Assembly: GCF_965214065.1 (NCBI RefSeq)
Contig: NZ_CBDCAT010000026.1
Location: 248,838 to 312,837 of the forward strand
DNA from: Candidatus Poriferisocius sp.
GTDB lineage: Bacteria; Actinomycetota; Acidimicrobiia; Acidimicrobiales; Bin134
Length of the DNA: 64,000 bases
Reading direction: 5' to 3'
Shown piece by piece: positions 9,347-38,047 of the stretch. Position 1 is the stretch's first letter, and each line of letters opens with the position of its first letter. Below the pieces are notes generated by a model, which was not told the DNA's origin, did not search any database, and worked only from the letters and a program-made list of their open reading frames with translations. The position numbers were made by a program, and so were the translations under genes.

Positions 9347-9362
9347 CGGTAGTCTGCCAACT

Positions 9363-16754: not shown

Positions 16755-17602
16755 GCGAATCCACCGCGGGCCGCTCCCGATCCGACGACGGGACCATGCC
16801 CTTGATGGGACATTTGGCCGAGCTGCGAGTGCGGCTCATCAAATGCGTCTTGGCCGTGGTGGCCGGCGCGGTGGTTTGCTGGGTGTTCTACCCCCAGATA
16901 CTGGACCGGCTGGTCCAGCCCTACTGCGACGTGATCCCCGAAGAAGCGGTGGATGAAGAGGCGGCGAGGCAGAACCTGTTCGGAGGATGCGAGCTTCTCG
17001 TGCTGGACCCGCTGGAGCCGTTCTCGGTGCGACTGACAGTGGCGGGCTACGGAGGGTTGACCCTGGCGGTTCCGGTGGTGCTTTGGCAGGTGTGGAGGTT
17101 TGTCCAGCCTGGCCTCTACCCCCGAGAACGACGACACGCAGCCGCTTTCACAGCGGCCGGGGCCCTGCTGTTCACCCTGGGGGCCGGCCTGGCCTATTGG
17201 AGCATCCCCCGGGCGCTGAACTTCTTGGCCTCAATCGGGGGCGAGGACTTGGTGACCGGATTCTCCCCCGCCAAGTACCTGTCGTTCGTGATCAAGATGA
17301 TGGCTGCATTCGGCATAGGCTTTGAATTCCCCATTCTGCTGGTGTTCTTGCAGCTCGCCGGGATCATCCACTACCGCCAGCTGATCCGGGGGCGGCGATT
17401 CGCCATTGTCGGCATCGTGGCCCTAGTTGCGGTGATCACCCCCAGCGGTGATCCATTCACGCTGATGGTGCTATCGGTGCCCATGTACTTGTTCTACGAG
17501 GTGGCCATTGTCATCGGATGGATGCGAGCCCGCCGAGAACGCCGCCGAGCCGTTGAAGGAGATGAGGACCCAGAGGAAGCCGATGCCGATTCAGAGGGGT
17601 GA
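16751..17602 (+). CDS. tatC: twin-arginine translocase subunit TatC
   Basis: 283 aa. MPLMGHLAELRVRLIK start and a six-TM profile. Overlaps the tatA stop. Confidence 0.9.
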   Translation: MSESTAGRSRSDDGTMPLMGHLAELRVRLIKCVLAVVAGAVVCWVFYPQILDRLVQPYCDVIPEEAVDEEAARQNLFGGCELLVLDPLEPFSVRLTVAGYGGLTLAVPVVLWQVWRFVQPGLYPRERRHAAAFTAAGALLFTLGAGLAYWSIPRALNFLASIGGEDLVTGFSPAKYLSFVIKMMAAFGIGFEFPILLVFLQLAGIIHYRQLIRGRRFAIVGIVALVAVITPSGDPFTLMVLSVPMYLFYEVAIVIGWMRARRERRRAVEGDEDPEEADADSEG

Positions 17603-18194: not shown

Positions 18195-19438
18195 AGCGCT
18201 GGTATCGCCGGGCTCGAAGAATCACTACGGTCGTCAATGCGACCACTAGCATTCGCCCCGTGACTCCCGAACTGGCCAAGCAGCAGATGGCCGCGGAGGT
18301 CGACGCGCGGGCGGCTCGTCTGCTCGGCGTCTCTCACCAGATCCACGAGACCCCTGAACTCTGCTTTGAGGAGCACACCGCCCACGATCTGCTCTGCACT
18401 GTCCTGGAGGGCGAAGGACTCGAAGTAGAGCGTTCGGCATTCGACCTGGACACGGCGTTCGTGGCCAGAGCCGGCCGGGCTGGCCCCCACGTTGCAGTGA
18501 TCTGCGAATACGACGCTTTGCCCGAGATCGGACACGCCTGCGGCCACAACGTGATCGCGTCCGCAGGACTGGGCGCGGGCTTGGCCGCGGCAGCGCTTGC
18601 CGAGGAGCTGGGGGGCCGTATCAGCATAATCGGCACCCCTGCGGAGGAGGGCGGCGGGGGCAAGTGTTATCTGCTGGAGCGGGGCGCCTTCGACGGCATC
18701 AGAGCAGCCATGATGGTTCACCCCGCCAACCACGAGCTCATGCGGATGAACGCCATTGCGGTGGAGCAGCTTGAAGTGGCTTACGCGGGGAAGTCAGCCC
18801 ACGCTTCAGCCTCGCCTCACCGAGGAAGAAATGCCCTCGACGGTGCTGTGTTGGGGTACATGAATGTGGCTGCGCTACGCCAGCACATTCGACCCGATGA
18901 GCGTATCCACGGGATTTTCACCCGGGCTGGGGACAAGCCCAACATCGTTCCTCATGATGCCGCGGCGGAATGGTACGTTCGCTCTCCCAGGCTCGACAGT
19001 CTGGCGGAGCTGAGAGAACGGGTGGTGGCTTGCCTCGAAGCCGGGGCGGCGGCGGCCGGAGTCGACATCGATTGTCGCAGCGAAGCGCCGATCTACGCCA
19101 ACCTGATCGACAACCAGGTGTTGTTGGACCTCTATATTCACAACGCGGCCGAGACAGGGCGGGTTGTCCACGAGCCCGAGTCCGCAGCAGCCGTTGTGGG
19201 CAGCACCGACATGGGAAACGTCAGCCACGTTGTGCCGTCAATCCATCCCATGATCAAGATCGCCCCCGAGCATGTGCCCATCCACACCCCGGAGTTCGCC
19301 CACTATGCGAAATCGCCGGACGGCGACCAGGCGGTGCTCGACGGGGCGAAGATGATGGCCATGACAGTCGCCGATCTGTGGCTGAACCCCGAAGCCCTCG
19401 ACCTGGCTCATGATGAACTGGCCCTCAGCCGCCAATGA
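18191..19438 (+). CDS. M20-family amidohydrolase/metallopeptidase
   Basis: 415 aa. HACGHNVIA metal-binding motif and GTPAEEGGGGK. The start is uncertain. Confidence 0.75.
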   Translation: MKRWYRRARRITTVVNATTSIRPVTPELAKQQMAAEVDARAARLLGVSHQIHETPELCFEEHTAHDLLCTVLEGEGLEVERSAFDLDTAFVARAGRAGPHVAVICEYDALPEIGHACGHNVIASAGLGAGLAAAALAEELGGRISIIGTPAEEGGGGKCYLLERGAFDGIRAAMMVHPANHELMRMNAIAVEQLEVAYAGKSAHASASPHRGRNALDGAVLGYMNVAALRQHIRPDERIHGIFTRAGDKPNIVPHDAAAEWYVRSPRLDSLAELRERVVACLEAGAAAAGVDIDCRSEAPIYANLIDNQVLLDLYIHNAAETGRVVHEPESAAAVVGSTDMGNVSHVVPSIHPMIKIAPEHVPIHTPEFAHYAKSPDGDQAVLDGAKMMAMTVADLWLNPEALDLAHDELALSRQ

Positions 19439-21051
19439 CCCAGTACGTCGCTGAACAGTTCACCAGTGACGAGGCGGACATCCTCCGCCGGTATTTCACC
19501 AACCTCGACCAGCCGGTGTTCGCACTGGTGAACCTGCCGGAGGTGGTCAAAGGAGCGCTGTTCGCCCGCTACAGCCGGTCGGCCAAATCACTGCGGAGGC
19601 TGTTTCTGGACGAGTTTGTCGGCGAATTGGACATCAGCGGCGACATGACCATCGATGCCACCGTCGGACTCAAGCGGGCCGAGGAGCTGTACGATCGGGT
19701 GTTCTTCGAGTACGGGGACGATTCGGTAGCCCAGCTAGGCGGCGTCCACCTGGCCTGCGAGCAAGCCTCCAATATCTTGACCAAGGTGCTGGAATGGGGC
19801 CGGCTGATGTCGTATTTGGAGCAGTCCACCAGATACATCGACTACCTGGCCCGCATCGGGGGACGCTATCGCTACTACCGCGACCCCCAAGTGGGGGAGT
19901 CACCCCTGTCGGGACGTTACGTCAGCGATATGGACCGGATGTTCGAATCCTACGGCCAGCTCCTACCGGACATGACCGATTTCTACCGCCAGCACACGCC
20001 CAAGGACTCCAGTACCTCTGACTTCGCCTACCGCCAGGCAGTTCGAGCCAAAGCACTGGATGCGGTTCGGGGGATGCTGCCGGCGGCGACCGTGTCAAAT
20101 GTGGGCATCTACGGCACCGGCCAGTCGTACGAGCTGCTCCTGCTGCGGATGCGGGCCCACGATCTCCCCGAGGTCCAGGCATACGCCGATCTGATGCTGG
20201 CCGAGCTGCGCAAGGTGATCCCCTCGTTCCTGAAGCGAGTGGACCTGGAAGACCGAGGAATGGAGTGGAGCCGCTATTTGGGCGACGTCCAGGAGTCGGT
20301 GGAGAGCGTGGCCCAGCATTTGGTGCCTCCGGATCTGTCCGCCGATGAAGTTTCAGAGGTTCGCCTGGTGGACTTCGACCCAGAAGCCGAGGTCAAGATG
20401 GTGGCCTCCATGCTGTACCCCTACACCCATCTACCCGAGGAACAGCTCGAGCGTGAGGTGAGGGCCATGGGGACCGAAGACCGGATGTCGGTGGTGCGGG
20501 CCTATGCGGGGACAAGGGCCAACCGCCGCCACAAGCCGGGGCGAGCCTTGGAGCGGCCCTTCTACCGATTCGACATCCTCTCCGACTACGGCGCCTTCCG
20601 AGATCTCCAGCGCCATCGAATGCTCACACTGGAGTGGCAGAAGCTCACTCCTCAACACGGGTTCACCCGCCCTGAGGCAGTAGACGCCGCGGGCTGCGCC
20701 CCAACGTTCAACAAGGTCATGGAGAGATCAGAGGACCTCTACCACCTCTTGAATCGAGACTTTCCCGAGCAGGCCTCATATGCGGTGTGCTTCGCCTACA
20801 AAGTGCGCTTTGCGATGAGCTTGAACGCCCGATCGGCCATGCACCTCATCGAACTGCGCACCACCCCCCAAGGCCACTCTGTGTACCGAAAGGTCGGACA
20901 AGAGATGTGGCGGCTCATCAGAGACGAGGCCGGTCACGCGGCAATTGCAGAGATGATGAAGTTCGTTGACCTCACCGAGGAGCCCCCCTTGGGCCGGTTG
21001 GATGCTGAACGCCGAGCCGAACAGCGACGTCAAGTCGAAGAGCGGGCGTAA
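19435..21051 (+). CDS. long (two-lobed) ThyX-like FAD-dependent thymidylate synthase family protein
   Basis: 538 aa. N-terminal lobe LPEVVKGALFARYSRSAKSLRR, C-terminal lobe FRDLQRHRMLT (RHR box). About twice the size of canonical ThyX. Confidence 0.6.
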   Translation: MTQYVAEQFTSDEADILRRYFTNLDQPVFALVNLPEVVKGALFARYSRSAKSLRRLFLDEFVGELDISGDMTIDATVGLKRAEELYDRVFFEYGDDSVAQLGGVHLACEQASNILTKVLEWGRLMSYLEQSTRYIDYLARIGGRYRYYRDPQVGESPLSGRYVSDMDRMFESYGQLLPDMTDFYRQHTPKDSSTSDFAYRQAVRAKALDAVRGMLPAATVSNVGIYGTGQSYELLLLRMRAHDLPEVQAYADLMLAELRKVIPSFLKRVDLEDRGMEWSRYLGDVQESVESVAQHLVPPDLSADEVSEVRLVDFDPEAEVKMVASMLYPYTHLPEEQLEREVRAMGTEDRMSVVRAYAGTRANRRHKPGRALERPFYRFDILSDYGAFRDLQRHRMLTLEWQKLTPQHGFTRPEAVDAAGCAPTFNKVMERSEDLYHLLNRDFPEQASYAVCFAYKVRFAMSLNARSAMHLIELRTTPQGHSVYRKVGQEMWRLIRDEAGHAAIAEMMKFVDLTEEPPLGRLDAERRAEQRRQVEERA

Positions 21052-21873: not shown

Positions 21874-22374
21874 ATGAGCGAGCGGCCAAAAGACGGCGCG
21901 GCCCGACCAGCCCGTGCCGACGAGATCGGTGCCATAGCCGAATTGGCCCGGGAAGCCCGTCGCGAAGCGCTGGAATACCGGGGCGGAGAAAGATGGATGG
22001 CCACCGAGGCCGCTCCTGAGCCGCTTGAACACCATGTGGCAGGTCTTATTGCTGATCCTGAGGCGGTATTGGTGGCGGGCATCTGGGACGACACGGTGGT
22101 GGGGTACGGATGGGCCCGGCGAATAGTCCGCCTGGACGGATCGCCGATTGGCCGGATCGAAGAGCTGTTCGTCACACCGGAGGGCCGTTCGGTAGGAGTA
22201 GGGGAGTCGCTGTTCGGCAGTTTGATGCAGTGGGCCCGAGAGCAGGAGCTCGTGGCGATCGACGCCTTCGTGTTACCTGGCCACCGCGAAGCCAAGAACT
22301 TCTTTGAGACGTTCAAGATGACTGCCCACGCACTGATCGTCCATACCCAGCTTGACCAAAACCGGGAGTCATGA
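21874..22374 (+). CDS. GNAT family N-acetyltransferase
   Basis: 166 aa. Acetyl-CoA-binding-like segment IEELFVTPEGRSVGVGESL. Confidence 0.7.
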   Translation: MSERPKDGAARPARADEIGAIAELAREARREALEYRGGERWMATEAAPEPLEHHVAGLIADPEAVLVAGIWDDTVVGYGWARRIVRLDGSPIGRIEELFVTPEGRSVGVGESLFGSLMQWAREQELVAIDAFVLPGHREAKNFFETFKMTAHALIVHTQLDQNRES

Positions 22375-22769
22375 GCGGGCCGGAGCTATGTGTCGGGGCC
22401 GTGGTGGTAAGCGGCGGCGCCATTCTGCTCATCCGACGAGGAACTCCGCCGGGGGAGGGACTGTGGTCGGTACCCGGTGGCCGCGTGCATCGGGGGGAGA
22501 GCATGGCCGACGCTGCCCGCAGGGAGCTGCTAGAGGAAACCGGGCTGGTAGGGGAGGTGGGCGAGGCCGTGGGCTGGACCGAGCTCATCGGCCGCCGACG
22601 CCACTACGTGGTGGTGGACTTTTGGGTCACAGTGGCGCCCGATGCGGCGCCGACCGCCGCAACCGATGCAACCGACGTGGCATGGGTGGACTTTGACGAA
22701 TTGGAGGAGTGGGACTTGGTCGACGGCCTGCTTCAGTTCCTAGCCGACCACCGGGTTATCTCCGGCTAG
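22371..22769 (+). CDS. NUDIX hydrolase
   Basis: 132 aa. Nudix box GGRVHRGESMADAARRELLEETGL. Confidence 0.85.
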   Translation: MSGPELCVGAVVVSGGAILLIRRGTPPGEGLWSVPGGRVHRGESMADAARRELLEETGLVGEVGEAVGWTELIGRRRHYVVVDFWVTVAPDAAPTAATDATDVAWVDFDELEEWDLVDGLLQFLADHRVISG

Positions 22770-22773
22770 CGGG

Positions 22774-24111
22774 TTAACTCCGGCTGGCGGCTTGAGCACC
22801 GGCGCCGCGGCGGCTGCGCCTCGGCGGCGGGGTGGGTTCCACGCCGAACAGGGCGGCGATATGGGGAACCCGCTCAGACAGCTTTGTGACCTCAGCCAAT
22901 AGTTCCTTGTCAGGATTCTCCGGGACACCCTGGGGCTGAACCGTTCGGCGCACCGGCGAGAACGCCACCGCTCCCAGTACGGTGATCCAACGCTTGGGCG
23001 GCGTGTCGCTGGCCAAGGCGGCGTTGGCCGCCTCTGTCAACCGGTTGACTATGTCTTGGGGAAGGGGCACTCCGGCTTTCGGGGGGCGTGAGCTGAGCCT
23101 CAAGGCTCGCACCATTCGACCATCGGCCAGCGTGGCAGCCACCTCGGCCAGCCATTCGGCGTGCTCTCTGTCGACTCGCTCGGTGAGCTTGTTGCGCAGA
23201 TCTTCGGCCATAGCCTTGGTCTCTTCGTCGGTTGCCCCGTTCTCAGAGGCGACCACCACCGACCGCAGATCGCGTAGGTCAACGTCGTCAATTTCGGCCA
23301 GAGCGGCCTCAACCCGATCTCGCCACTCCGCGGATCGCATCCGAGGGAGCAGCTTGCCGGCTGCGGCTAGAAATTCATCGGCAGGATCGGAACTGGGCTT
23401 CTTTTCTTTCGCATCCTGCTTTGGCGGTTTGGCCTTGGCCTCAGATTCAGGAGCCTCCTCCGGTTTGGCCCCGGCCTCAGATTCAGGAGCCTCCTCCGGT
23501 TTGGCCTCGGCCTCAGGAGCTTCCTTGGCCGCTTTCTGCTTAGCTTGGGCAGCGTCACGGGCTTTCTTGCGCTGATCCCGCAGGGCTTGTTCCACCGAGG
23601 CGACGCCGTCTCTCATCATCTTCTCAGCCACCAGCTTTTGCTCCTCAGGCAAGCTGTCGATCAACGCCTGGCGGTGGGTGCGTGCGGGGCGCAGGCGCTT
23701 GGCTTTGGGACGGTCATCGTCGCGGCGGGTTTCCTGGCGATCACGATCCCTTCGGTCGCCCCGGCCGCGTCGGTCCTGACGTCCCCTTCGGTCGCCGGAA
23801 TCCCGGTCCCGATCCCGGCCCTTGCGATTGGCCACCAACTGGGTGGTCACCAGTGGTTGATCTCGGCCAGAGCCCAAGATCTCCAGAGTCTCCGGCAGGG
23901 GACGCTTGATCTTGGGTTCGAAGGCCTCGATGATCTCGATACCATCCATGTGGAATTCGGCCTCGACGGTCAGCTCGTCGCCCACTTTGGCCGCAAAGGC
24001 GATCAGATCGCCGGCCATCTCGCCCTTCGGCTCTCGTGCGCCCGCGGCCCTCCATGTCCAAGACCCGTCGGGCCGCTGGCTGGTCAGCTCAATCTCAATC
24101 CTGCGAGACAC
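22774..24111 (-). CDS. hypothetical protein with R/D-rich and K/E/A/P-rich repeat linker
   Basis: 445 aa. Folded-looking N- and C-terminal domains are separated by RDRDRDSGDRRGRQDRRGRGDRRDRDR and a repeated AKPEEAPESEA. No recognisable catalytic motif. Confidence 0.55.
   Translation of the reverse strand: MSRRIEIELTSQRPDGSWTWRAAGAREPKGEMAGDLIAFAAKVGDELTVEAEFHMDGIEIIEAFEPKIKRPLPETLEILGSGRDQPLVTTQLVANRKGRDRDRDSGDRRGRQDRRGRGDRRDRDRQETRRDDDRPKAKRLRPARTHRQALIDSLPEEQKLVAEKMMRDGVASVEQALRDQRKKARDAAQAKQKAAKEAPEAEAKPEEAPESEAGAKPEEAPESEAKAKPPKQDAKEKKPSSDPADEFLAAAGKLLPRMRSAEWRDRVEAALAEIDDVDLRDLRSVVVASENGATDEETKAMAEDLRNKLTERVDREHAEWLAEVAATLADGRMVRALRLSSRPPKAGVPLPQDIVNRLTEAANAALASDTPPKRWITVLGAVAFSPVRRTVQPQGVPENPDKELLAEVTKLSERVPHIAALFGVEPTPPPRRSRRGAGAQAASRS
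23437..23530 (-). repeat. 36-bp tandem coding repeat (two full units plus one partial)
   Basis: GGCCTCAGATTCAGGAGCCTCCTCCGGTTTGGCC occurs at 23437-23470 and 23473-23506, then a shortened third copy. Encodes (A/G)AKPEEAPESEA. Confidence 0.9.
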
Positions 24112-24166
24112 CGGCGGTCACGCTACCGCATTGGCGTTCAATGGCAGAACTGCTGGTGGGCTTTCC

Positions 24167-24538
24167 TCAGCATGGGGCCAATACGGCGGTTGCGGGAACA
24201 CCCATACCGCCCAAGTCGATGGCCACCGTGCCAACAGCCGGGGTTAGGCCAGTGAACACCCGTGGGCTCCAGGGGATGCGGGCCTCCACTCGAAGCACGG
24301 GACTTCCCCCGGCTTGGCTGACGCAACCGGCCAGGATGGTGCCGTCAAGGCGGGTTGTGTTCACCGTGCTCAGATCGCAACCCCGGCTCCCGCAACCATC
24401 GACAAAGGCTCCTGCGGCCCGCTCGGCCCGGTTGACGGCCAGGTTGCGACTGGTGATCAGTTCAGCGTGGTCGGCCAGCGAGCCGCTGGCCACAGCCACG
24501 GCCATGCCCAGCGACAAGAGCACAATGGCGGAGTACAT
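24167..24538 (-). CDS. TadE-like pilus/secretion accessory protein (Rv3654c-type)
   Basis: 123 aa. N-terminal hydrophobic helix (AIVLLSLGMAVAVA). Last gene of the Tad-like operon, 4 nt after the previous stop. Confidence 0.5.
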   Translation of the reverse strand: MYSAIVLLSLGMAVAVASGSLADHAELITSRNLAVNRAERAAGAFVDGCGSRGCDLSTVNTTRLDGTILAGCVSQAGGSPVLRVEARIPWSPRVFTGLTPAVGTVAIDLGGMGVPATAVLAPC

Positions 24539-24542
24539 CGGC

Positions 24543-24962
24543 CTAGTCGACTGGCTCGATGCCCACGGCTATGACCCGTTCGGTCTTGAGAATCATACCC
24601 AGATCCACCGGGCAGCTCACCACCGCCGCCACCGACGGTGTCGCGCCGAGGCTTCGGGAAGGGCGAGGCTGGGAAACCAGGCTGACCTCAAACAAGGCAT
24701 CGGTTTGGTTGCAGACCCCGGCGGTGGCGGCGAGGCCGGACTGATCCACCGTGGCCATCACCTCGTCCCACCGGGCCCGAGCCGACGGCTCCGCGGTGGT
24801 GGCGTCGGCCTCGGCCAGGGTGTCGGCAGCATGAACGGCAGCGGCCTCTGTAAAGGCCGATGTCCGGTACCGGGCCGTGCCCAGCGTCCCGGCGGCGTCG
24901 AGCACCACGATGCTGAGCACCAGCGCAGGAAGTATCAGCAGAAACGCAATGGCGTCGCTCAT
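24543..24962 (-). CDS. TadE-like protein
   Basis: Internal ATG (MSDAIAFLLILPALVLSIVVL) of track ORF 24543..25055. TadE-type N-terminal helix. 10 nt after the previous stop. Confidence 0.5.
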   Translation of the reverse strand: MSDAIAFLLILPALVLSIVVLDAAGTLGTARYRTSAFTEAAAVHAADTLAEADATTAEPSARARWDEVMATVDQSGLAATAGVCNQTDALFEVSLVSQPRPSRSLGATPSVAAVVSCPVDLGMILKTERVIAVGIEPVD

Positions 24963-24972
24963 GGGAATCCCA

Positions 24973-25371
24973 TCAACAGGATCCGGGGACGCGGAGCGCG
25001 GCGGCGCTGGTGGCCGATCGACAGGCGATGGCGGTGGTGTGCAGCGCCGACACACGGGTATCCAACGGCGCCGCGGTGACCGCGGCGATCAGATTGCAGG
25101 CGTCGGCGTACACATCCACGGCCACCGGCTGCACCGCGAGGTGCTTAATCTTGCCCAAGGCCGCTCGGGCCGCGGCGGCCAACGCCTCGGGGGGCGGTGC
25201 ATCGCATTGCCATCCGACCGCGGTCGCAGCCTGGGCCGCGGCGACCGCGGCCGACTGGGCGGCCGCGTCGGCCGACAGCCGGGTGACGTGGCTCACGTAC
25301 AAACCGGTGACCACCGCCAACAAGAACATCAGCAGCACCACGTTGCGCAGGACGACCAGGGGGGAGGTCAT
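24973..25371 (-). CDS. TadE/TadG-like protein
   Basis: 132 aa. N-terminal helix VVLRNVVLLMFLLAVVTGLYV, then an Ala-rich segment. 6 nt after the pilin-candidate stop. Confidence 0.5.
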   Translation of the reverse strand: MTSPLVVLRNVVLLMFLLAVVTGLYVSHVTRLSADAAAQSAAVAAAQAATAVGWQCDAPPPEALAAAARAALGKIKHLAVQPVAVDVYADACNLIAAVTAAPLDTRVSALHTTAIACRSATSAAALRVPGSC

Positions 25372-25377
25372 GGCTGG

Positions 25378-25581
25378 TTAGGCGCATGATCCTGGACTTC
25401 CAGAAGTCCAAGTGCCGCCCACGGCGTCGCACAGCCTTTCGCTGGTGATGCGGTTGTTGTCGATATTGTGCCCTTCGTTGGGAGCATTATCGCTGAGCTG
25501 GGCGTAAACGATGAAGGCCACGATGGCAGCGGCAGCGATGGCGACCACGATCAAGATCATCTGGACGATGGCTGATTGCAT
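25378..25581 (-). CDS. candidate major pilin / small hydrophobic subunit (atypical, no Flp G/XXXXEY motif)
   Basis: 67-aa ORF inside the spurious track ORF 25378..26364. Strong SD AAAGGAGA 7 nt upstream of the ATG. MQSAIVQMILIVVAIAAAAIVAFIVYAQL helix plus a polar tail with two Cys. Occupies the flp position of Tad loci. Confidence 0.45.
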   Translation of the reverse strand: MQSAIVQMILIVVAIAAAAIVAFIVYAQLSDNAPNEGHNIDNNRITSERLCDAVGGTWTSGSPGSCA

Positions 25582-25619
25582 GGGTGATTTCTCCTTTGGT
25601 TTGGGGCAACTGGCGCGCC

Positions 25620-26333
25620 TCAGAGCACGAAGATGACGGCGGCCATGACGGTGAGACCAGCGACGGCGGCCACCAGGGTGACCGTGGTTCCGATGGCCCG
25701 GCTGAGCTGGTCGATAGCCAGGCGTCGCTCGGACTCCAGGGTCCGAACCGATCGGGACAGGGACTTCTCCAATAGATCTGACGACGCCGCTCCAGCCCGC
25801 TCGGCAGCCACTACCGAGGTCAGCAGCGGCTCGGCGGGGGAGCCGGCGATGGCCGCGGTGACCGCGGGCAGCGGATCCCGTCCGGCCTCCAAAGCAGCCC
25901 CAATGGCCCCCTGGGCCACGGTGAATGCCCGACCCGACACCGTCAAGGCCGCGTTGACCGCGGCCGCGTTGATGGGCTGTCCCGCCGAGGTCAACAGCCG
26001 CAGTTTGCGCATCCACTCGAGAATCTTCTGGTCCCGTTCTCGGCGGTAGGCCGACGCGGCCAGCGATCGGATGGCTGCGGGCACCAAGCGAGGCAGCCAC
26101 GTTCCAGCCAACACCGCCAGAGTCAAACCTCCGGCCCAGCCGAATGCCGATAGCCCGACGAGCCCGGCAACCCCAGCGCCGGCAGCCGACAGGGTCCAGC
26201 TGGCCATCGAGACGTGGTTGGGAGGCCAGCCCATGGCCGCGGCCTGAATCGCGGCCTGGCTGTTGGTATTGGGCGAGGCCAGCAGCAGTGCCATCGTCCC
26301 GGCCACTCCCGAGATGCCAGCGACAAAGATCAT
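25620..26333 (-). CDS. TadC-like (GspF-fold) inner-membrane platform protein
   Basis: 237 aa. TM-cytoplasmic helical domain-TM layout. The ATG overlaps the upstream stop (ATGA). Confidence 0.55.
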   Translation of the reverse strand: MIFVAGISGVAGTMALLLASPNTNSQAAIQAAAMGWPPNHVSMASWTLSAAGAGVAGLVGLSAFGWAGGLTLAVLAGTWLPRLVPAAIRSLAASAYRRERDQKILEWMRKLRLLTSAGQPINAAAVNAALTVSGRAFTVAQGAIGAALEAGRDPLPAVTAAIAGSPAEPLLTSVVAAERAGAASSDLLEKSLSRSVRTLESERRLAIDQLSRAIGTTVTLVAAVAGLTVMAAVIFVL

Positions 26334-27145
26334 CGGCCCGCTCTCCAGGCCGGGGCCAGAACACGGGCGCAGAGCGCGGCGGTCAACATCGCCAACAGCA
26401 GCATGAACTGCTGCCCGACTACAGAGGTAAGCCAGCGACCCACGTCTTTAGCGGCAAAGCCGCTGATGGCCAACATGCCAACCGCCATCACCACGGTGAC
26501 AGCGATCTGAGGCATGAGGGCAGCCACATAGCGGTGGAAGTGGCGGGCAGTCTCGGCCGCCTCCATAGCCTCGTCGGCCAGGACGCCGGCCAACCCCACC
26601 CACTGGGAACCGCCCCGAAACGCCTCGGCCAGCACGGTGGCCAGCATCTCGGCAATAGGGCGTTGGATGGTGGTGGAGAAGCGGTCGGCCGCCTCGACCA
26701 GGCCGCCGGTCTCGCACTCGGCGGCCATAAGCTGCGCAGCCGCACCGACCCGGCCGGGAACCAGCGGCGCTGCTTGGCGGATGGCTACCACCACGGTGGG
26801 AGCCACCAACGCCTGGTTGGCCAGTCCGCTGGCCAGCTGGGCTAGCTCGTCGGCTTCCCGCAGACTGCGGCGCGATCTGATCTGAACCGCGATTGCCCAA
26901 ATGCCCACGCCGGTAAGCACCATGACGGCCACGCCGGTGGTTGCCCCCACCATCACCAGTCCGGCAATGAATCCGAGGACGACCAGTGCCGCGGCCAGCA
27001 GCGGTCCAGCTCGAAGCGAGCGCCTTCGAGCGAGCAGCAGGCTCCCCATGAAGAGCGCCGTGGGGGTACCGGCCGACGCCGGCCACCAAACCATCACCAT
27101 CAAGGCCAACCCTGCGGCCAAAGCCGCCGCGGCTTGCGCGGTCAT
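26330..27145 (-). CDS. TadB-like (GspF-fold) inner-membrane platform protein
   Basis: Internal ATG (MTAQAAAALAAGL..) of track ORF 26330..27490, overlapping the ATPase stop (ATGA). 271 aa with the same topology as the TadC-like protein. Confidence 0.55.
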   Translation of the reverse strand: MTAQAAAALAAGLALMVMVWWPASAGTPTALFMGSLLLARRRSLRAGPLLAAALVVLGFIAGLVMVGATTGVAVMVLTGVGIWAIAVQIRSRRSLREADELAQLASGLANQALVAPTVVVAIRQAAPLVPGRVGAAAQLMAAECETGGLVEAADRFSTTIQRPIAEMLATVLAEAFRGGSQWVGLAGVLADEAMEAAETARHFHRYVAALMPQIAVTVVMAVGMLAISGFAAKDVGRWLTSVVGQQFMLLLAMLTAALCARVLAPAWRAGR

Positions 27146-28770
27146 CGGTTTCCCACCCGGGATGTCGCCACCGGCGTAGAAGGCACCGCCGGCCTCCTGT
27201 CGGTTCCCGGTGCTGGGCCGTCGGCCGGTCGCAGGTCTATCCCCACAGACTGGTACAGACGCTCGACTTGGCCATGGGGCCGGCCCACCGGGGCCGACCA
27301 CCGCTGGCCGGGACGAAGGGCCCAAAGGCACCGGGTGTCGATGACATCTTGGCGATCGTCGTAGCTGACGATCTGGGTGACATCGGAAATCACCCGCTCT
27401 CCGAGCTCGTTGCGGCCCATCCACACCAGCAGGTGGACGGCGATGGCGATCTGCTGGCGGGCGAACCGAGCGTCGGCCCCCTCGCCGCATGCGTACGACA
27501 CCAATTTGGCCAGCACCCCCGGCCCCGGCTGGCTGTGCAGGGTGACCAGGCAGCCATTGAGCCCACTGCTCATGGCGTCGAGCAGGGCGAGGGTACCCTC
27601 GCCTCTGGTCTCGCCGATCACCAGCTTGGACGAATTGGCGCGCTTGGCGTCGCGGATGTGGTCGCTCATGGTGAGCTTTCCCACACCGTCGTTGTTGGCA
27701 TCCCGGGTCAGGCGCTCAAAGCTGTTGGGGTGGATGCCGTATTGGGCCAAGCGGAGCTCGGGAGTGTCCTCTATGGTGTCGATCCTCTCGGAGCCGTCGA
27801 CGGTGGCCAGCAGGGCCTGGCACAGTGTGGTTTTGCCGCCGCCCATGGCAGCGGCGATCACGATGTTGGCCCGAATTGGCCCGGATACCGCCCCCGCCAA
27901 AATCTTCTGAAGCGGTGGTGCGGCAACTTTCAGGTCGTCCAACGTGGCTTGGCCGGCCATATTCGACCGAAGGACCATGGTGGGGGGATGGCACATGAAC
28001 GCTTCGGCGTGCAGCCGCCACCGGTCGCCAAGGCGGATATCCAGCCGGCTGTCGAGCATGTCGAAGCGCTGGGGCTGCCCTCCGGAGAAGCTGGCCAGGT
28101 GCCGGGCCGTCTCGATCAACTCGTCATTGGACGCGAATGGGGAGTTCCGGCGCTCGCGCTGTCCCTCGGCACGGTGGACGATCATGCACTCGCCGCCCCG
28201 GATTTGGAACTCCTCGACTCCCGTTTCGTCCAGCAGGTCGGCCAGCCGGGTTTGGGCAGCTTGCGAAGCCGACCATAGGTGGGTCTCGCGGTCGAGCGGG
28301 TCGAGCCGGCGGGGGGCGACGGCGGTCCATGCCATCCGACGCCCAAGCCGGTTCAGTCGGCGGCGATGGCTCCGACCCGGGTCGGTGGGCACCCAGAGCG
28401 TGAAGACCCGCTGGCGGCGAAACCGATCGGCGTCGGGCTGATCGTTGGACACCACCACCGAGACAATGGGCGTGGAGCGGCGGGCCCCGGTGTCCAGCCG
28501 TAGCTGGGAGCGGATGTCGGTGCTGTCGGCGGCGGTGATCCACAACACCGCAGCGGCTGAGGCCACCGCCGATTCCCGGCGGAGTTCCGGCTCATCGCCT
28601 CCCATGAAGAACACCGTGGGGTGACCGGCAGCCGATGCCTGGTCAACCTCGGTAGGGGAGGTGGCCAGAATCACACTGGGGGCGCTGCTGGCAATGCCCT
28701 CTAGAACCCCGTCCATTACCTGCTCCACGGCCTCGCTGTCGAGCCGTCTGTCTCTAATTGCCAACAGCAT
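27142..28770 (-). CDS. TadA/CpaF-family secretion ATPase with ~200-aa N-terminal extension
   Basis: 542 aa. Walker A AAAMGGGKTTL, Walker B/Asp box KLVIGETRGEG, His box GCLVTLHS. The N-terminal third has no ATPase motifs. Confidence 0.8.
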   Translation of the reverse strand: MLLAIRDRRLDSEAVEQVMDGVLEGIASSAPSVILATSPTEVDQASAAGHPTVFFMGGDEPELRRESAVASAAAVLWITAADSTDIRSQLRLDTGARRSTPIVSVVVSNDQPDADRFRRQRVFTLWVPTDPGRSHRRRLNRLGRRMAWTAVAPRRLDPLDRETHLWSASQAAQTRLADLLDETGVEEFQIRGGECMIVHRAEGQRERRNSPFASNDELIETARHLASFSGGQPQRFDMLDSRLDIRLGDRWRLHAEAFMCHPPTMVLRSNMAGQATLDDLKVAAPPLQKILAGAVSGPIRANIVIAAAMGGGKTTLCQALLATVDGSERIDTIEDTPELRLAQYGIHPNSFERLTRDANNDGVGKLTMSDHIRDAKRANSSKLVIGETRGEGTLALLDAMSSGLNGCLVTLHSQPGPGVLAKLVSYACGEGADARFARQQIAIAVHLLVWMGRNELGERVISDVTQIVSYDDRQDVIDTRCLWALRPGQRWSAPVGRPHGQVERLYQSVGIDLRPADGPAPGTDRRPAVPSTPVATSRVGNR

Positions 28771-29420
28771 CAGCCCGCGGCCTCATTGTCGTCACCGGGA
28801 CCGAAAGGGCCATCGCTTGGGCACGGGGGCCAGCCCCCGGGAGGCGACTCCCATATCCACCACTGACCGTCGGACAGCACGGCAGCCAGTTCAGGGTCGG
28901 CCTCTATGGTCACGCTGGTGGCGGCGCCTTCGTCGTCCACCGCCAACAAAGTTGCCAGCGCAGCTGCGCACCCACCAGAGGAGGGGGAGAAGACGGCCCG
29001 GTCTCCGGCAGCCGGTCCGGAACCAGCCCACATATCCGCGCTCACCATGAACCGCATCAGCGCGGTCAAGCGGCTGTCGCCACCGTTTTGTAGAGGGCGC
29101 AGCATCTTGGGGGAAACCAGCGTGCCCTCGGGCACGTCGACGGCGGCCACGGTGTCCGCCAGCTGGGAGGGATGGACGAACAGCGCCGCCCCATCGGCCG
29201 GCATGTTGACGGTGGCATGATCGCCCGGTGGGTGGCCCTCGGCCCACCGCTGGGCCGCCACCACTACCGAAACCTCCGCGACATCCTGGCCGTCTCGGGA
29301 CAGGGCCGCGATCGCCGCGACGGTGGCCACCAGGACGACCGCCGTTGCCAATAGGCGCCAGCGGAAGGCAACTGGCCAAGACGTGGGCGACCACTGCTCG
29401 CTATTGGGACGGTTCACCAT
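28770..29420 (-). CDS. CpaB/RcpC-like (SAF-type) membrane-anchored pilus assembly protein
   Basis: 216 aa. N-terminal TM (LLATAVVLVATVAAIAAL) followed by a beta-rich segment with VPEGTLVSPKML, typical of CpaB-like proteins. Sits directly upstream of the ATPase. Confidence 0.4.
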   Translation of the reverse strand: MVNRPNSEQWSPTSWPVAFRWRLLATAVVLVATVAAIAALSRDGQDVAEVSVVVAAQRWAEGHPPGDHATVNMPADGAALFVHPSQLADTVAAVDVPEGTLVSPKMLRPLQNGGDSRLTALMRFMVSADMWAGSGPAAGDRAVFSPSSGGCAAALATLLAVDDEGAATSVTIEADPELAAVLSDGQWWIWESPPGGWPPCPSDGPFGPGDDNEAAG

Positions 29421-30892
29421 ATTGTGATCCGTTGGCCCAGATACTCGGTCGGCTCGCGGAACCAGGACAGATCATCGGCCAAGACCAGGGTGTGGTGATG
29501 GCCCTGCTCAGAGGTGTACTGAACTTGCAGGCTCCACACCCAGAAGCCCCGACGGGGGATCGACCACCGACAGTGCCCGTGGGCCGCTTCCCAGGCGGGG
29601 GACAACGACAACACCTTGTCTTCCGGCACGGTCCAAGGGGGCAAGTCACCGGGCGGGCACCAGACGATGGAAGGATCGTTGCGGGCAAAGGCGGCTTGGA
29701 ACCATTGCTTGCGCTGGGAACTCAGCAGATCCCACAGCGCGGCTGCCTCAATGGCCGTGTCCTTCGCAGCCACGTCGCCCGGAGCCTTCAGCTTGGCCAG
29801 ATCAGCAGGCTCGTAGGGAAGCAGCTCTCGTAGCGACACCCCGACGCGAGTGGCCGTCCAAAGGCATCCGTCCACCGGGGCGTCGAGCACATCGAGCGTT
29901 GACCCCGGTTGCAGGGCTGTCCAATGGCGCACCGCGTGGCCCGCCCTTGAGGCCGCGGTCAGAAACAGCCGCCCGCCCGGTACCTCGGGATGGTGATGTC
30001 CCGTGAAACCACTGGCGTAGGGAACAATCGACTCCCACCGCACCCGCCGCAGCAGCGACATCCGGGTCTGGTCGGTCCACCCCCACGTGCAGGTCTTCCG
30101 TGGAGGCGGAGGAGGCGGAGGAGGGGGCGGAGGAGGAGGGGGCGGCGGAGGAGGGGGAGTCGCAGTAGCCGTCGGAACCGCAGTAACCGTCGGAGTGGCC
30201 GTAGGCCGAGGCGTCGTAGTCGTAGTGGCTGTGGGCCCAGGCGTGGGCGTCGCCGTAGGCCGAGGCGTCGCAGTCGGGGTAGGGGTCACCGTAGGCCGAG
30301 GCGTCGCAGTCGGGGTAGGGGTCACCGTAGGCCGAGGCGTCGCAGTCGGGGTAGGGGTCACCGTAGGCCGAGGCGTCGCAGTCGGGGTAGGGGTCACCGT
30401 AGGCCGAGGCGTCGCAGTCGTAGTGGCTGTGGGCCCAGGCGTGGGCGTCGCCGTAGGCCGAGGCGTCGCAGTAGCCGTCGGCGGGGGAGGCACGGGCTTC
30501 CAATGCCCGGTGTAGGACCAGTAGTACGTCTGCGGAGTCCACCAGTGGCTCCCGAACTGGTACCACGCCCCCGGGGTGTCGGCTGCGGGCGGGCTATGAC
30601 CGCACCCCTCGCTCGTGCTGTGAACAACACAGGAAGTGGAACGGGAGTTCCCGGTCGGCTGTGAGCCGAAGGGTGTGCCGGCGTACTCGACAAACTGGTT
30701 TATGTGGGCGTATTCATGGGCCAGCGAGGTGCGACTGGTCCAGCACCACTGGCCCGGCGACGCGGCATCGCAAGAGGGCCAGCCGAGATCAAGCTTTAGA
30801 TCGGCGGCTCCCGGCGCAGGGCTTATCAGCAGCGCAAGCAGCGCGGTGATCACAATGGCGGCGGCCACCCGCAGGCGGTCAGCACGTCCCAC
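29414..30892 (-). CDS. secreted modular protein: small Cys-containing HExxH domain, Pro/Thr repeat linker, poly-Pro rod, unknown C-terminal domain
   Basis: 492 aa with a GTG start. Signal peptide (RLRVAAAIVITALLALLISPAPGAA), AHEYAHINQF, (TPTPTATPRPTV)x4 flanked by related PT units, 19 consecutive Pro, then a ~240-aa Trp/His-rich domain. Confidence 0.6.
   Translation of the reverse strand: MGRADRLRVAAAIVITALLALLISPAPGAADLKLDLGWPSCDAASPGQWCWTSRTSLAHEYAHINQFVEYAGTPFGSQPTGNSRSTSCVVHSTSEGCGHSPPAADTPGAWYQFGSHWWTPQTYYWSYTGHWKPVPPPPTATATPRPTATPTPGPTATTTATPRPTVTPTPTATPRPTVTPTPTATPRPTVTPTPTATPRPTVTPTPTATPRPTATPTPGPTATTTTTPRPTATPTVTAVPTATATPPPPPPPPPPPPPPPPPPPRKTCTWGWTDQTRMSLLRRVRWESIVPYASGFTGHHHPEVPGGRLFLTAASRAGHAVRHWTALQPGSTLDVLDAPVDGCLWTATRVGVSLRELLPYEPADLAKLKAPGDVAAKDTAIEAAALWDLLSSQRKQWFQAAFARNDPSIVWCPPGDLPPWTVPEDKVLSLSPAWEAAHGHCRWSIPRRGFWVWSLQVQYTSEQGHHHTLVLADDLSWFREPTEYLGQRITIW
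30101..30157 (-). repeat. 19 consecutive proline codons (CCN)
   Basis: Counted codon by codon in the frame of 29414..30892. The plus strand reads (GGN)19. Confidence 0.9.
30267..30410 (-). repeat. four perfect 36-bp tandem repeats, flanked by a ~60-bp direct repeat pair
   Basis: GTCGCAGTCGGGGTAGGGGTCACCGTAGGCCGAGGC x4 (30267-30410). Flanking near-identical blocks lie at ~30205-30270 and ~30402-30470. In frame, with no spacers. Confidence 0.95.
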
Positions 30893-31964
30893 TAGTGTTC
30901 ACCCCCACGTGCTGGTGCAGTCCGGGCACCGCCCCCGGAGCCTCGGCATCAAGCACGGCGTTCAACACCCAGTGCTCGGCACACAATTCGGTTGTTCCCG
31001 GAACTGCGAGGTGCGCAACCAAATCGGCTTCGAATGACTCACAGGTATCGGCGGCGATCCTCTCCAGCCGGGGTTGCCCCTTTAGCACCAGGCCCCGGAA
31101 CACGACGTCGCGACATTTTTCCGCGAATGGCCGTCCGTCAAGCGGGGTCGGATTTCCGATAGTCGGGCACTGCGTCCAAGAGTTCCCCTGTCCGCCGACC
31201 ACGCTGTAGTCGTCGGAATACGCCTGCTGCACGCACTCGCGTTCGGCGCCGTAACGCTGTATGGCCTGCTCCATCAGGCCAGCGCTGGTGGTGCAGCCCA
31301 ACACGGCTTGCGACGCGCGCACATCCTGGGGCCATGGAGAGGGAGTCGACGGGTCTGCATGATGATTCACGCACCGGGTCATCCAGTCCCAGGCCTCCGC
31401 GGGCGGTGAGACCACGCGAAATCCGCCCAATTCCTCCCGGGTAGCAGGCCGAAGCACCTGGTACTCACCGGTAGAGTCCTCTGTCCAGGCGCTCTCCAGC
31501 GACGGCGGCGGCAACTGGTATTCACCATCGCTAATCCCGCCCTCGTCGTCAGCACCGGGAGGAGTGTCCCGCCACGTAGCTTCCGAACTCGACTCATCGG
31601 CAGCAGGGTCGGGATGGGAATGGCCGGGTGGGTGGTTGATTACCGGTTCCAAAGAGCTAGCGCTCCTGGCGCGGGGGCTGAGTGTCCAATTCGTGGGCAA
31701 CCCCGGAGTCGGGGTGGCCGTGGATCCCGGCAAAGGCGTCGCCAGACCGGAGGTGGAGGCGAGTCCGGTGGCGGGCGGCATCGCCCGAGATGGGGCGGCC
31801 TTCGATTCAAGGGCCTCTTTCTGGTCTGGGTCGGTCAGCAGCACCGCAGCAGCAGGCGCCGACAAAGCAGTTGGCGATGAGGCCGCGGGCAGATCGGCGC
31901 TGTTGCTCGCGCAGGCCGTCAACAGCAACGTTGCGGCCAACCACATTCGGTGGACGGCACCCAT
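30879..31964 (-). CDS. Cys-rich putative lipoprotein, first gene of the Tad-like operon
   Basis: Internal ATG (MGAVHRMWLAATLLLTAC..) of track ORF 30879..32024. Lipobox LLLTAC, a Pro/Ser/Thr-rich linker, and a C-terminal domain with many Cys. Its 3' end overlaps the next gene by 14 nt. Confidence 0.55.
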   Translation of the reverse strand: MGAVHRMWLAATLLLTACASNSADLPAASSPTALSAPAAAVLLTDPDQKEALESKAAPSRAMPPATGLASTSGLATPLPGSTATPTPGLPTNWTLSPRARSASSLEPVINHPPGHSHPDPAADESSSEATWRDTPPGADDEGGISDGEYQLPPPSLESAWTEDSTGEYQVLRPATREELGGFRVVSPPAEAWDWMTRCVNHHADPSTPSPWPQDVRASQAVLGCTTSAGLMEQAIQRYGAERECVQQAYSDDYSVVGGQGNSWTQCPTIGNPTPLDGRPFAEKCRDVVFRGLVLKGQPRLERIAADTCESFEADLVAHLAVPGTTELCAEHWVLNAVLDAEAPGAVPGLHQHVGVNTSGTC

Positions 31965-32189: not shown

Positions 32190-33383
32190 ATGCACCGACC
32201 TCCGATGACGACTCCCACTGACTACGACAATCCTGGCTACGCGCGAGCCTGTGCCCTCGAACCTGAAATGGCCGAGAACTACCTCGCGCACACCATGATT
32301 GGCGACCCCTTGGCCGATGCTGCCGTCGAAGTTCTCTCCGCAATGAAGCGTTCGGAGTCCGCCCAACTCATATCGGCCTACATGACCGTCCCGGACGGGA
32401 ATGACCCTCCTGATGCGCCCGAGGAGGTCCACGCGCTCTTCGAGGACGCCTTTACTCCACCAGACTGGCTCGATCCTTCGGCATTGACCGCCGGCATTCA
32501 TATGTTCCATCGGAACCGGAAGATGGTGGTGGCCGGGATGCTGGCCGGAGTTCTCGTGGAAGGATTCTCCACCAACATCAGCGAGTCGTTCTTCGTCACC
32601 GGCCGTCTGCGCGACCAGGGCGTTAGGCGGCTTCAGCAAAACAACCGCCATATGGTGGAGATCTTCCTTCCCGGCGGCATGTTGCCCCACGGTGATGGAT
32701 GGAGGCTCTCTTTTCGGATCCGCCTAGTCCATGCCCAAGTCAGGTACCTGCTCAAGAACTCCGAAGACTGGGACGAGGATGCCTTGGGCGTCCCGTTGAG
32801 CGCAGCCCATTGCGGCTACGCGATCACCGCGTTCTCTGCTCGACTGCTCAAGCACATGAGGAGCCTGGGAGCAGCCTTCAGTGTCGAAGAAGCAGCGAGT
32901 TTCATGGCGACGTGGCGCTACTCGGGGCTTCTCATGGGGATTCCTGACTCGATCCTCTTTCAGGGCGAACAAGATGCGTTGAAGCTGTACGAGGTCGGCA
33001 CCATGTGCGAGCCAGAGCCCGGCGCCGCATCTGTCGTTCTGGCCAACTCGCTGGTGAACTCTGCACCTCTCGTGGTTGGCATCAACGACTCAGCCGAGGG
33101 ACAGAAGTTGTCGCAGTACGTCTACAAAGTGTCGCGGGCGCTCATCGGAGACACACTGGCCAATCAGCTGAACTACCCCAAGCAGTCCACCTTCGGCGTG
33201 CTTCCGTGGTTCCGCGTACAGGCCAAGTACGATCGCTTCACGTCGCGGTTCCTCCCCAAGATCGCCCGCAAGAGCAACGTTTCCAACTTCACAACGCTTT
33301 TGTCGGGTTCGTGGTTCCACGACGAGGGCATCACCTACCACTTGCCCGACCACGTCTATGCCGAGAAGTCCAGCGAATGGTGA
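32190..33383 (+). CDS. oxygenase MpaB-family (DUF2236) protein
   Basis: 397 aa. Resembles MpaB/DUF2236 proteins in length and in helical His/Arg-rich blocks (FRIRLVHAQVRYLL). Weaker match than the paralogue at 52228..53124. Confidence 0.55.
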   Translation: MHRPPMTTPTDYDNPGYARACALEPEMAENYLAHTMIGDPLADAAVEVLSAMKRSESAQLISAYMTVPDGNDPPDAPEEVHALFEDAFTPPDWLDPSALTAGIHMFHRNRKMVVAGMLAGVLVEGFSTNISESFFVTGRLRDQGVRRLQQNNRHMVEIFLPGGMLPHGDGWRLSFRIRLVHAQVRYLLKNSEDWDEDALGVPLSAAHCGYAITAFSARLLKHMRSLGAAFSVEEAASFMATWRYSGLLMGIPDSILFQGEQDALKLYEVGTMCEPEPGAASVVLANSLVNSAPLVVGINDSAEGQKLSQYVYKVSRALIGDTLANQLNYPKQSTFGVLPWFRVQAKYDRFTSRFLPKIARKSNVSNFTTLLSGSWFHDEGITYHLPDHVYAEKSSEW

Positions 33384-37883: not shown

Positions 37884-38047
37884 TGGTCCGTCTGTGAATT
37901 GGCAGGTACGGATTGCGACGGCAGCGGCGTTCCTCGCAAGGCGCACCGACGCAGCCATACCCGGAGCGTACGGCAAGGAGGAGCAACGCCGCGAGGGGCG
38001 TCGATGCCTAGCAGGACGCCCTGCTCAATTTGCAGACGGACCACTAG
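37880..38047. repeat. 168-bp element bounded by a perfect 15-bp inverted repeat (possible bidirectional terminator, structured RNA or MITE-like insert)
   Basis: CTAGTGGTCCGTCTG (37880-37894) pairs with CAGACGGACCACTAG (38033-38047). The helix extends through GAATTG/CAATTT and GCAGG/CCTGC. The arms contain the TAG stops of both convergent genes. Confidence 0.6.

Follow-up and report, generated by a model that had tools for sequence, protein, structure and literature searches.

A Tad-like operon with leaderless pilin-like subunits and a variable pair of exported proteins in Candidatus Poriferisocius

We analysed a 64,000-nucleotide (nt) stretch of contig NZ_CBDCAT010000026.1 of Candidatus Poriferisocius sp. 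(hereafter the window), in which ten closely packed minus-strand genes, g1 to g10, encode what appears to be a divergent machine of the Tad type led by two exported proteins (Table 1). A preliminary description, made from the sequence alone, had read these ten genes at 24167-31964, and each open reading frame (ORF) was indeed found there, intact in all ten cases. The junction distances from g1 to g10 were reproduced exactly as -14, -7, -1, -4, -4, +38, +6, +10 and +4 nt. Apart from a single match at 26352-26334, inside the g5/g6 overlap, no terminator-like site was seen at the gene junctions, and the overlaps suggest that g1-g10 form a single transcript with translational coupling. The gene order g3-g10 is kept in ~80 related loci, which span at least two families of Acidimicrobiales and whose ATPases are between 94% and 50% identical; a locus conserved to this extent is beyond chance.

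Table 1. Coordinates of the operon, its sub-features and its neighbours in the window (aa, amino acids; nt, nucleotides)
Feature	Position	Strand	Description
g1	30879-31964	-	Cys-rich lipoprotein, 361 aa
g2	29414-30892	-	492 aa; signal peptide, PT repeats, poly-Pro
g2 N-terminal domain	30488-30802	-	aa 31-135, 105 aa, 4 conserved Cys
g2 linker	30107-30487	-	PT-rich repeats and 19-Pro run
g2 PT repeat	30249-30420	-	36-nt unit, 4.8 copies, 99% identical
g2 poly-Pro run	30102-30159
g2 conserved C-terminal domain	29417-30106	-	~230 aa, Trp-rich; invariant Cys, Trp and PGG motifs
Replaceable hypervariable cassette	30054-31960	-	~1.9 kb; mature g1, g2 signal peptide and N-domain, PT/poly-Pro linker
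g3	28770-29420	-	216 aa, one transmembrane segment; bitopic, CpaB/RcpC-like
g4	27142-28770	-	TadA/CpaF-type secretion ATPase, 542 aa
g4 N-terminal receiver-like domain	28390-28770	-	aa 1-127, alpha/beta, predicted
g5	26330-27145	-	polytopic membrane protein, TadB position, 271 aa
g6	25620-26333	-	TadC-like platform protein, T2SSF domain, 237 aa
g7	25378-25581	-	candidate major subunit, 67 aa
g8	24973-25371	-	minor-pilin-like, TadE position, 132 aa
g9	24543-24962	-	minor-pilin-like, 139 aa
g10	24167-24538	-	minor-pilin-like, 123 aa
Promoter candidate	32065-32037	-	sigma-70-like, TTGATA-17-TATAGT; consensus match only, 10/12 positions
445-aa protein	22774-24111	-	highly charged (R/K/E/D-rich), 55 nt after g10
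Pup-proteasome cluster	5718-14104	+	complete: Mpa/ARC ATPase, Dop-like Pup ligase-family protein, proteasome beta and alpha, PafA, PafB/PafC WYL regulators
tatC	16751-17602		after the Pup-proteasome cluster
ThyX fusion	19435-21051	+	538-aa ORF, ThyX (Thy1) domain at residues 311-498 only
MpaB/Lcp-type oxygenase-domain protein	32190-33383	+	divergent neighbour of g1
Glyoxylate-shunt pair	38044-42620	divergent	isocitrate lyase, 783 aa (unusually long); malate synthase G, 722 aa

By homology, g4 is a hexameric motor of the CpaF/TadA class. It matched Pfam T2SSE at 53.6 bits (cut-off 24.9) and, among solved structures, was closest in sequence to CpaF (8rkd, 97 bits), with VirB11 at 38 bits. The AlphaFold (AF2) model, with a predicted local distance difference test (pLDDT) score of 81.6, had TadA/CpaF as its top Foldseek match (E 6e-23). 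The catalytic motifs are intact, of which the Walker B (LVIGE) and His box (TLHS) were located by pattern, and the P-loop (AAMGGGKTT) and Asp box (ERIDTIEDTPE) were read from the sequence and its invariant columns. A type IV secretion motor is not indicated, as the VirB11 and TrbB models scored well below CpaF and TIGR03819 for g4. The family scans, which took in ~50 window ORFs (Pfam or NCBIfam) and left out ~10 smaller predicted ones, likewise turned up no VirB4, VirD4 or relaxase.

The motor carries ~180 extra N-terminal residues, conserved in all 64 aligned homologues; the plasmid ATPases listed as its best matches align to g4 only from residue 148 or later. This region was modelled as a six-stranded alpha/beta domain (residues 1-127, pLDDT ~81-95 except near residue 115, where it drops) and, after it, two long helices (residues 133-180). 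The sole match of the domain in profile searches of the Protein Data Bank (PDB) was a response-regulator receiver (E 0.017), and since no invariant acidic residue follows strand 3, it is probably an atypical receiver. TadZ/CpaE proteins join a receiver-like domain with a ParA ATPase. No TadZ/CpaE was found in the operon or within the 10-kb flanks of the relatives' loci, an absence that is partly explained by the receiver-like domain fused to g4. The fold is predicted, and the domain may take the place of the TadZ/CpaE localisation protein. Loss of cpaE has a parallel in another order of Acidimicrobiia, UBA5794, where the gene is missing from sponge-associated genomes (PMC12008989).

The motor is accompanied by three candidate membrane partners. 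In g6, a T2SSF domain was recognised just above threshold (Pfam, 26.0 bits vs 25.2, residues 107-234), and its orthologues have weak precomputed T2SSF matches. In g5, the hydrophobic segments are consistent with a polytopic membrane protein, and no T2SSF match was obtained in 11 sequences (window plus 10 homologues); hhalign of g5 with g6 returned a weak similarity (E 0.003, 136 columns, probability 10%). The third, g3, has an N-terminal transmembrane segment and an extracytoplasmic domain with two invariant Cys and a WWIWESPPxGWPxC motif. Its resemblance to CpaB is faint: the TIGR03177 model gave E 0.012 (14.9 bits vs a cut-off of 71), Pfam SAF was matched in 5 of 11 g3 homologues (best E 0.003), and hhalign with the SAF protein of a Brachybacterium plasmid gave E 0.003 over 127 columns. 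Neither g3 nor g5 had a match among PDB sequences in profile searches. Taken with the class of g4, these results bear out the Tad-like core of the preliminary description.

The putative filament subunits, g7-g10, are unusual in being leaderless. All four begin M-x-[S/T/D]-[A/S/P]-[I/L/V], with a hydrophobic helix directly after. Thus, g7 starts with MQSAIVQMILIVV and continues into a helix of ~28 residues; two conserved Cys (LCxAVGGxW...C) close the short loop at the C-terminus of the protein. In an alignment of 74 sequences, g7 and its 73 homologues begin M[QD]S[AP][IV]. It has neither a leader nor a G/xxxxE(Y/F) motif and matches neither DUF4244 nor the Flp family, as befits the atypical pilin candidate that had been suspected here. 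The next gene, g8, encodes MTSPLVVLR... and an AADAAAQSAA motif; g9 opens with MSDAIAFLLILP, and g10, which has conserved Cys, with MYSAIVLLSLG.... These starts were checked by start-codon context and against 40-74 homologues per gene. A strong Shine-Dalgarno sequence, AAAGGAG, lies 7 nt upstream of g7, for which there is no in-frame upstream start; the g8 ATG has an in-frame stop 9 nt before it, and g10 has no alternative start. Homologues of g10 were found even in a distant clade, at 30-37% identity. Neither Pfam TadE nor any NCBIfam model matched g8-g10, and the TadE/TadF processing motif is not present in them. The hhalign similarity of g8 to a plasmid TadE is weak (E 0.004 over 94 columns). 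Accordingly, the TadB-like and TadE-like labels previously given to g5 and to g8-g10 stand by position, topology and weak profile similarity, and curated families do not recognise these proteins. Weak matches of operon proteins to TrbK, BasC and Astro_1A were dismissed as noise from hydrophobic segments.

Neither in the operon nor in the scanned window ORFs did we find a prepilin peptidase (TadV/CpaA, Peptidase_A24), and no GxGD[VILMA]K motif occurs in any of the six reading frames of the window. The leaderless g7-g10 fit with the lack of a peptidase gene nearby: with no class III leader to remove, a prepilin peptidase step would not be needed. The missing TadZ and peptidase could alternatively be signs of decay, the operon being a functionless Tad remnant, as could the fact that most components score below curated family thresholds. 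We consider this hardly credible, since all ten ORFs are intact, the catalytic motifs of the ATPase are conserved, and gene order and coding capacity are kept over ~80 loci, to 50% ATPase identity.

How does the operon compare with known systems? First, it resembles the Tad/Flp loci of Caulobacter (Cpa) and Aggregatibacter (Tad) in having a CpaF/TadA-class ATPase, best by both sequence and fold, one T2SSF protein above threshold with a second polytopic protein adjacent, a CpaB/RcpC-like bitopic SAF protein (a weak match) 5' of the ATPase, and a small hydrophobic subunit followed by several larger pilin-like proteins. It differs in that the subunits lack a leader and the Flp G/xxxxEY prepilin motif, that neither TadV nor TadZ/CpaE is present in the locus or the scanned window ORFs, that g4 bears the extra receiver-like domain, and that two additional exported proteins are encoded, one of which has a domain not seen elsewhere. 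A secretin is also missing from the locus, as expected in a monoderm.

Second, the closest published actinobacterial system is the Flp/Tad operon of Mycobacterium tuberculosis, as described in PMC9531140 and PMC2864267. The preliminary description had likened the operon to the 'helicase/secretion neighbourhood' of that species, Rv3654c-Rv3660c (TIGR03815-TIGR03819). The likeness holds insofar as the phylum is the same, g4 has TIGR03819 as its top NCBIfam model, and the order of ATPase, two membrane proteins, small protein and TadE-like proteins is shared. Membership does not, because g4 reaches 137.1 bits against a cut-off of 373.15. Furthermore, TadZ is missing from the window, and no TIGR03815 (CpaE-like), TIGR03816 (TadE-like) or TIGR03817 (DEAH-box helicase) protein was found in the operon or the scanned window ORFs, in keeping with the earlier claim that the operon lacks a CpaE/Ssd ParA-type gene, a prepilin peptidase and the helicase. 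In M. tuberculosis, the pilD peptidase gene lies downstream of the Flp/Tad operon (PMC9531140), unlike the situation here, where there is no peptidase gene near the operon. The TadE-like Rv3654c and Rv3655c are reported to be secreted (PMC2864267).

Third, the nearest annotated ATPases, ~30% identical to g4, are those of Brachybacterium kimchii pCBA3104-01 and similar plasmids. The plasmid genes are co-linear with g3-g10 (SAF protein, CpaF, T2SSF, Flp-like, TadE, TadE/TadG), and the corresponding proteins have weak profile similarity (E ~0.003-0.004). Unlike the subunits in the window, however, the plasmid Flp-like and TadE proteins carry classical G/xxxxE leaders (of the G/EVVEY type). The plasmid also has a 'conjugal transfer protein' gene nearby and a ParA family gene ~400 nt upstream of the SAF gene, with one small gene between; it has no g1/g2, and the first 175 residues of g4 have no aligned counterpart in its ATPase. 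Finally, the Kil system of Myxococcus is a Tad-derived apparatus used for contact-dependent killing. It is a conceptual parallel only, that of a Tad machine repurposed beyond classical adhesion, and bears on the effector reading of g2 considered below. From sequence, then, the operon would be a divergent Tad-like one that lacks several features by which Tad/Flp and TIGR03815-TIGR03819 loci are defined.

The two leading genes set the operon apart. As the preliminary description had it, both encode exported proteins without a recognisable family, and neither family nor solved-structure searches returned a match. The first, g1, has a lipobox (LLTAC) and 9 Cys, with a low-complexity tether of ~120 residues and a conserved domain of ~220 residues that holds 8 Cys; no match was obtained in Pfam, NCBIfam or PDB. 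The second, g2, is built of three parts. Its N-terminal domain has the motifs HEYxHxNxFVEYAGTP, CVVH and CGH, matched no PDB sequence and no toxin or peptidase family, and is probably a small metal-binding or Cys-knotted module. The HEYAH at residues 59-63 is an instance of HExxH, which all eight type-a sequences share (those of the window and of 7 loci; types are defined below). A chance motif was therefore rejected for this type, yet the label of metalloprotease was not adopted because HExxH is absent from the other types. The linker contains Pro-Thr (PT) repeats encoding TPRPTVTPTPTA units and differs in length and composition between loci; the near-perfect identity of the repeats suggests recent expansion or contraction.

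The C-terminal domain of g2, in contrast to the variable remainder, is tightly linked to the core. A hidden Markov model detected it in 64 of 71 chromosomal loci, where it lies upstream of the ATPase, separated from it by a single g3 gene; the median distance from the end of the domain to the ATPase start is 642 nt. In four of four metagenome loci with the domain, g3 and the ATPase follow directly downstream. The domain is otherwise rare. A word search found 36 proteins, and there were 60 cluster representatives among 1.84 billion, in most of which it is C-terminal. The AF2 model (pLDDT 73, predicted template modelling score 0.72) had no Foldseek match, the best E-values against PDB and BFVD being 0.14 and 0.055 with TM-scores below 0.25. 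Distant proteins with this domain bear Cadherin-like and Calx-beta domains upstream of it; ten g1- or g2-position proteins from distant loci had no Pfam domain. At the g1 position, 39 of the 47 loci with a chainable upstream ORF encode a lipoprotein (by lipobox match or lipobox-like N-terminus), and the ORFs chained in the remaining eight look like artefacts of chaining. A Cys-rich lipoprotein is therefore found in nearly all readable loci, and with the linkage of the g2 C-domain the two leading genes prove syntenic with the Tad core in relatives; had they been syntenic in none, the preliminary description would have had to be given up.

The sequences of g1 fall into at least four types (a-d) with only faint profile similarity between them, and the clusters of g1 and of the g2 N-domain coincide exactly. 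At the nucleotide level, blastn against two congeneric loci (L009 and L012) showed continuous 74-76% identity over 22000-30050. Similarity then resumes at 31960 (g1 start/promoter) with L009 and at 32205 (the mpaB-like gene) with L012, with nothing between, which delimits the replaceable cassette of Table 1. Recent horizontal swapping of the cassette was considered and is not demonstrated: the break is clear, but the types largely follow the ATPase tree. In addition, g1 and g2 are absent and the core is kept in 7 loci of one Aldehydirespirator sub-clade and in all 6 loci of a paralogous gene set described below. Because both groups keep the core without them, g1/g2 are an accessory module and not an indispensable structural part. 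In the sub-clade (L047, L050, L053, L054, L056, L059 and L062; stretch upstream of position 9380) the module has been lost altogether, and the operon starts at the CpaB-like gene and is adjoined by unrelated genes, including a glycerate kinase-like gene.

These observations bear on what g1/g2 might do. In tad loci, rcp-type genes neighbour rcpC/cpaB. One could therefore regard g1/g2, which are placed in the same way relative to g3, as a structural conduit through the envelope, functionally analogous to TadD, RcpB and RcpA, and the conserved g2 C-domain, its tight linkage to g3 and the overlapping genes would suit such a role. We find it decidedly unlikely, however, since wholesale replacement of g1 and the g2 N-domain between congeners is unusual for a structural conduit, the 7 chromosomal and 6 paralogous loci do without the pair, and the PT/poly-Pro stalk, together with the Cadherin-like/Calx-beta fusions in relatives, points to display and not to a channel.

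A second possibility is secretion of the kind performed by the type II secretion system, whereby a short pseudopilus of g7-g10 would push Sec-exported g2, and possibly g1, through the wall, and no long pilus would be made. The Sec-type signals of two proteins encoded with the machine, the atypical subunits and the reported secretion of the M. tuberculosis TadE-like proteins mentioned above would agree with it. On the other hand, what is conserved in g2 is a dedicated C-terminal domain, not a typical enzyme or effector, g1 as a lipoprotein would be membrane-tethered and hence not released, and the sub-clade that keeps the machine without g1/g2 implies that they are not its sole cargo. Overall, this scenario appears unlikely.

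Lipoprotein immunity proteins and a Tad-like killing apparatus exist in other systems. With this in mind, a two-gene module that is swappable and co-varies perfectly, with HExxH conserved in 8/8 type-a sequences, could be read as contact-dependent antagonism, the g2 N-domain being a polymorphic effector delivered via the Tad-like apparatus and g1 its extracytoplasmic immunity lipoprotein. Yet the orientation is opposite to that of known polymorphic toxins, with the variable domain N-terminal and the partner gene upstream. Moreover, g1 (330-450 residues with a long tether) is far larger than typical immunity proteins, the 105-residue N-domain matches no toxin or peptidase family, and the non-a types have no HExxH. 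Antagonism is thus quite improbable.

We favour, at about an even chance, a different reading, namely that the operon encodes a highly derived, peptidase-independent filament or pseudopilus machine of the Tad/Flp type (type IVc-like) with a variable recognition/adhesion module, in a monoderm sponge symbiont. The g4 motor would act on a membrane platform of g5 and g6, a step that homology covers in part, and g3, given its weak homology, may form an extracytoplasmic collar. Architecture and gene order suggest that g7 would be polymerised via its N-terminal hydrophobic helix, primed by g8-g10. The accessory surface module of g1/g2 would be exported by the general secretory pathway, judging from the lipobox and the signal peptide, and g2 would be coupled to the machine or the filament by its conserved C-domain, so that the PT/poly-Pro stalk holds out the variable, Cys-stabilised N-domain. 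On its long tether, the g1 lipoprotein, which co-varies with that N-domain, is probably its partner. Its wholesale exchange between close relatives makes recognition or adhesion the most likely role of the module, and a fixed structural role an unlikely one; the sponge matrix, host cells or other bacteria may be its targets.

Several points weigh against this reading. The machine is known here from the genes of metagenome-assembled genomes (MAGs) alone; g5, g7 and g8-g10 match no curated family, and profile comparisons bring out no more than weak likeness to TadB, TadE and CpaB (E ~0.003). The negative results for the peptidase and TadZ hold, within this genome, for the scanned ORFs of the 64-kb window, and a copy might be present elsewhere in the genome. 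The contacts of g2 with the filament and of g1 with g2 are deduced, the model of the g2 C-domain is of moderate confidence (pLDDT 73), and the co-variation of g1 with the g2 N-domain may reflect shared history, as the types largely follow the ATPase tree.

The genomes that contain L001, L035 and others also carry a second Tad-like gene set (L040:173-16581, L037:75-17268 and L081:1-15328). Its ATPase is ~61% identical and its subunits are likewise leaderless, with an extra 82-residue pilin-like gene between the g7-like and g8-like genes. In place of g1/g2, it has an upstream SNF2/DEAD-type helicase of 1804-2017 residues. The upstream side also holds genes for an ArdC-N protein and for a coupling protein of the TraG/VirD4 type, and L037 has a tyrosine integrase on the downstream side. 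Neither VirB4 nor a relaxase was seen in the 10-kb flanks. These loci look like an integrative, possibly conjugative, element using a Tad-like apparatus, and they suggest a role in conjugation for the paralogue, not for the window locus. The helicase that the preliminary description had noted as missing does not adjoin the operon in the window, but the association is present in the paralogous, integrative-element-like loci, whose helicase neighbour recalls the unexplained 'helicase/secretion neighbourhood' of other Actinomycetota.

By the same token, the chromosomal operon might be a competence- or mating-type pilus, kin of the conjugation-linked paralogue. In support, the paralogues adjoin genes for the coupling protein, ArdC-N and a helicase of 2014 residues, with the integrase in L037, and in a neighbour-joining tree their clade is sister to the Poriferisocius chromosomal clade; furthermore, Tad pili are reported to mediate transformation in Micrococcus luteus (PMC4322843). 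Nevertheless, no coupling protein, relaxase, helicase, integrase or DNA-uptake gene was found among the scanned ORFs of the 64 kb, the neighbourhood is a conserved housekeeping one (Pup-proteasome cluster, tatC, thyX and glyoxylate shunt genes), and g1/g2, the distinguishing genes of the window locus, are exactly those absent from the mobile-element copy. DNA transfer or uptake as the function of the chromosomal operon is accordingly very doubtful.

Having favoured a filament machine with a recognition module, we would raise a broader possibility, which is unlikely as it stands. An undescribed, peptidase-independent Tad-derived lineage may exist in two forms: a mating apparatus on a mobile element, with a coupling protein, ArdC and a giant helicase and no VirB4 in view, and a chromosomal form in which a swappable two-protein recognition cassette, docked via the g2 C-domain, replaces the DNA-processing genes and serves host or partner recognition. 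If this were true, the mobile-element form would represent a conjugative mating apparatus of a new kind. We found no literature on a Tad-based conjugation system or on the Poriferisocius locus.

Prepilin processing is the defining feature of type IV filament machines. A conserved leaderless lineage with a receiver-like domain for TadZ would show the peptidase step to be dispensable and widen the design space of monoderm nanomachines. Both the tight linkage of the fold-orphan g2 C-domain to the machine and the swapping of the neighbouring cassette offer a handle on how uncultured Acidimicrobiales sponge symbionts recognise or attach to their host or one another. In addition, the context of the paralogue hints that Tad-like machines may be conjugation devices in Actinomycetota, which would make the 'helicase/secretion neighbourhood' association testable.

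Regarding distribution, full-length relatives of the ATPase came only from MAGs of Acidimicrobiia/Acidimicrobiales, and every source of relatives is a MAG. An exact-sequence look-up of the window ATPase returned no record. The sources are named Candidatus Poriferisocius, Aldehydirespirator or Poriferisodalis, or belong to sponge MAG collections, and these names suggest sponges as the hosts of MAGs with this ATPase family.

The window is core chromosome. The Pup-proteasome cluster followed by tatC is a typical core synteny of Actinomycetota, and the scanned ORFs include no integrase, relaxase, coupling protein, helicase, A24 peptidase or ParA/CpaE-type gene. The G+C content is only slightly higher (67% vs ~63%). 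A mobile element around the locus was considered and rejected in view of the housekeeping neighbours and the conserved synteny.

At the borders of the operon, the promoter candidate sits in an AT-rich spacer 5' of g1 that is common to the divergent mpaB-like gene; no riboswitch or known RNA was found in the 5' region or elsewhere in the window. Downstream, the 445-residue protein has no Pfam or NCBIfam match. Its gene is syntenic in nearly all loci of the Poriferisocius clade and absent beside the distant and paralogous loci; no terminator was seen between it and g10, and its co-transcription with, or membership of, the operon is uncertain.

Elsewhere in the window an MmpL gene is also present. 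The N-terminal ~300 residues of the ThyX fusion have no match, and the same 538-residue gene is called in a relative (L084). The mpaB-like gene, present once in the window, occurs as two tandem copies in that close relative (L084:4266-6751).

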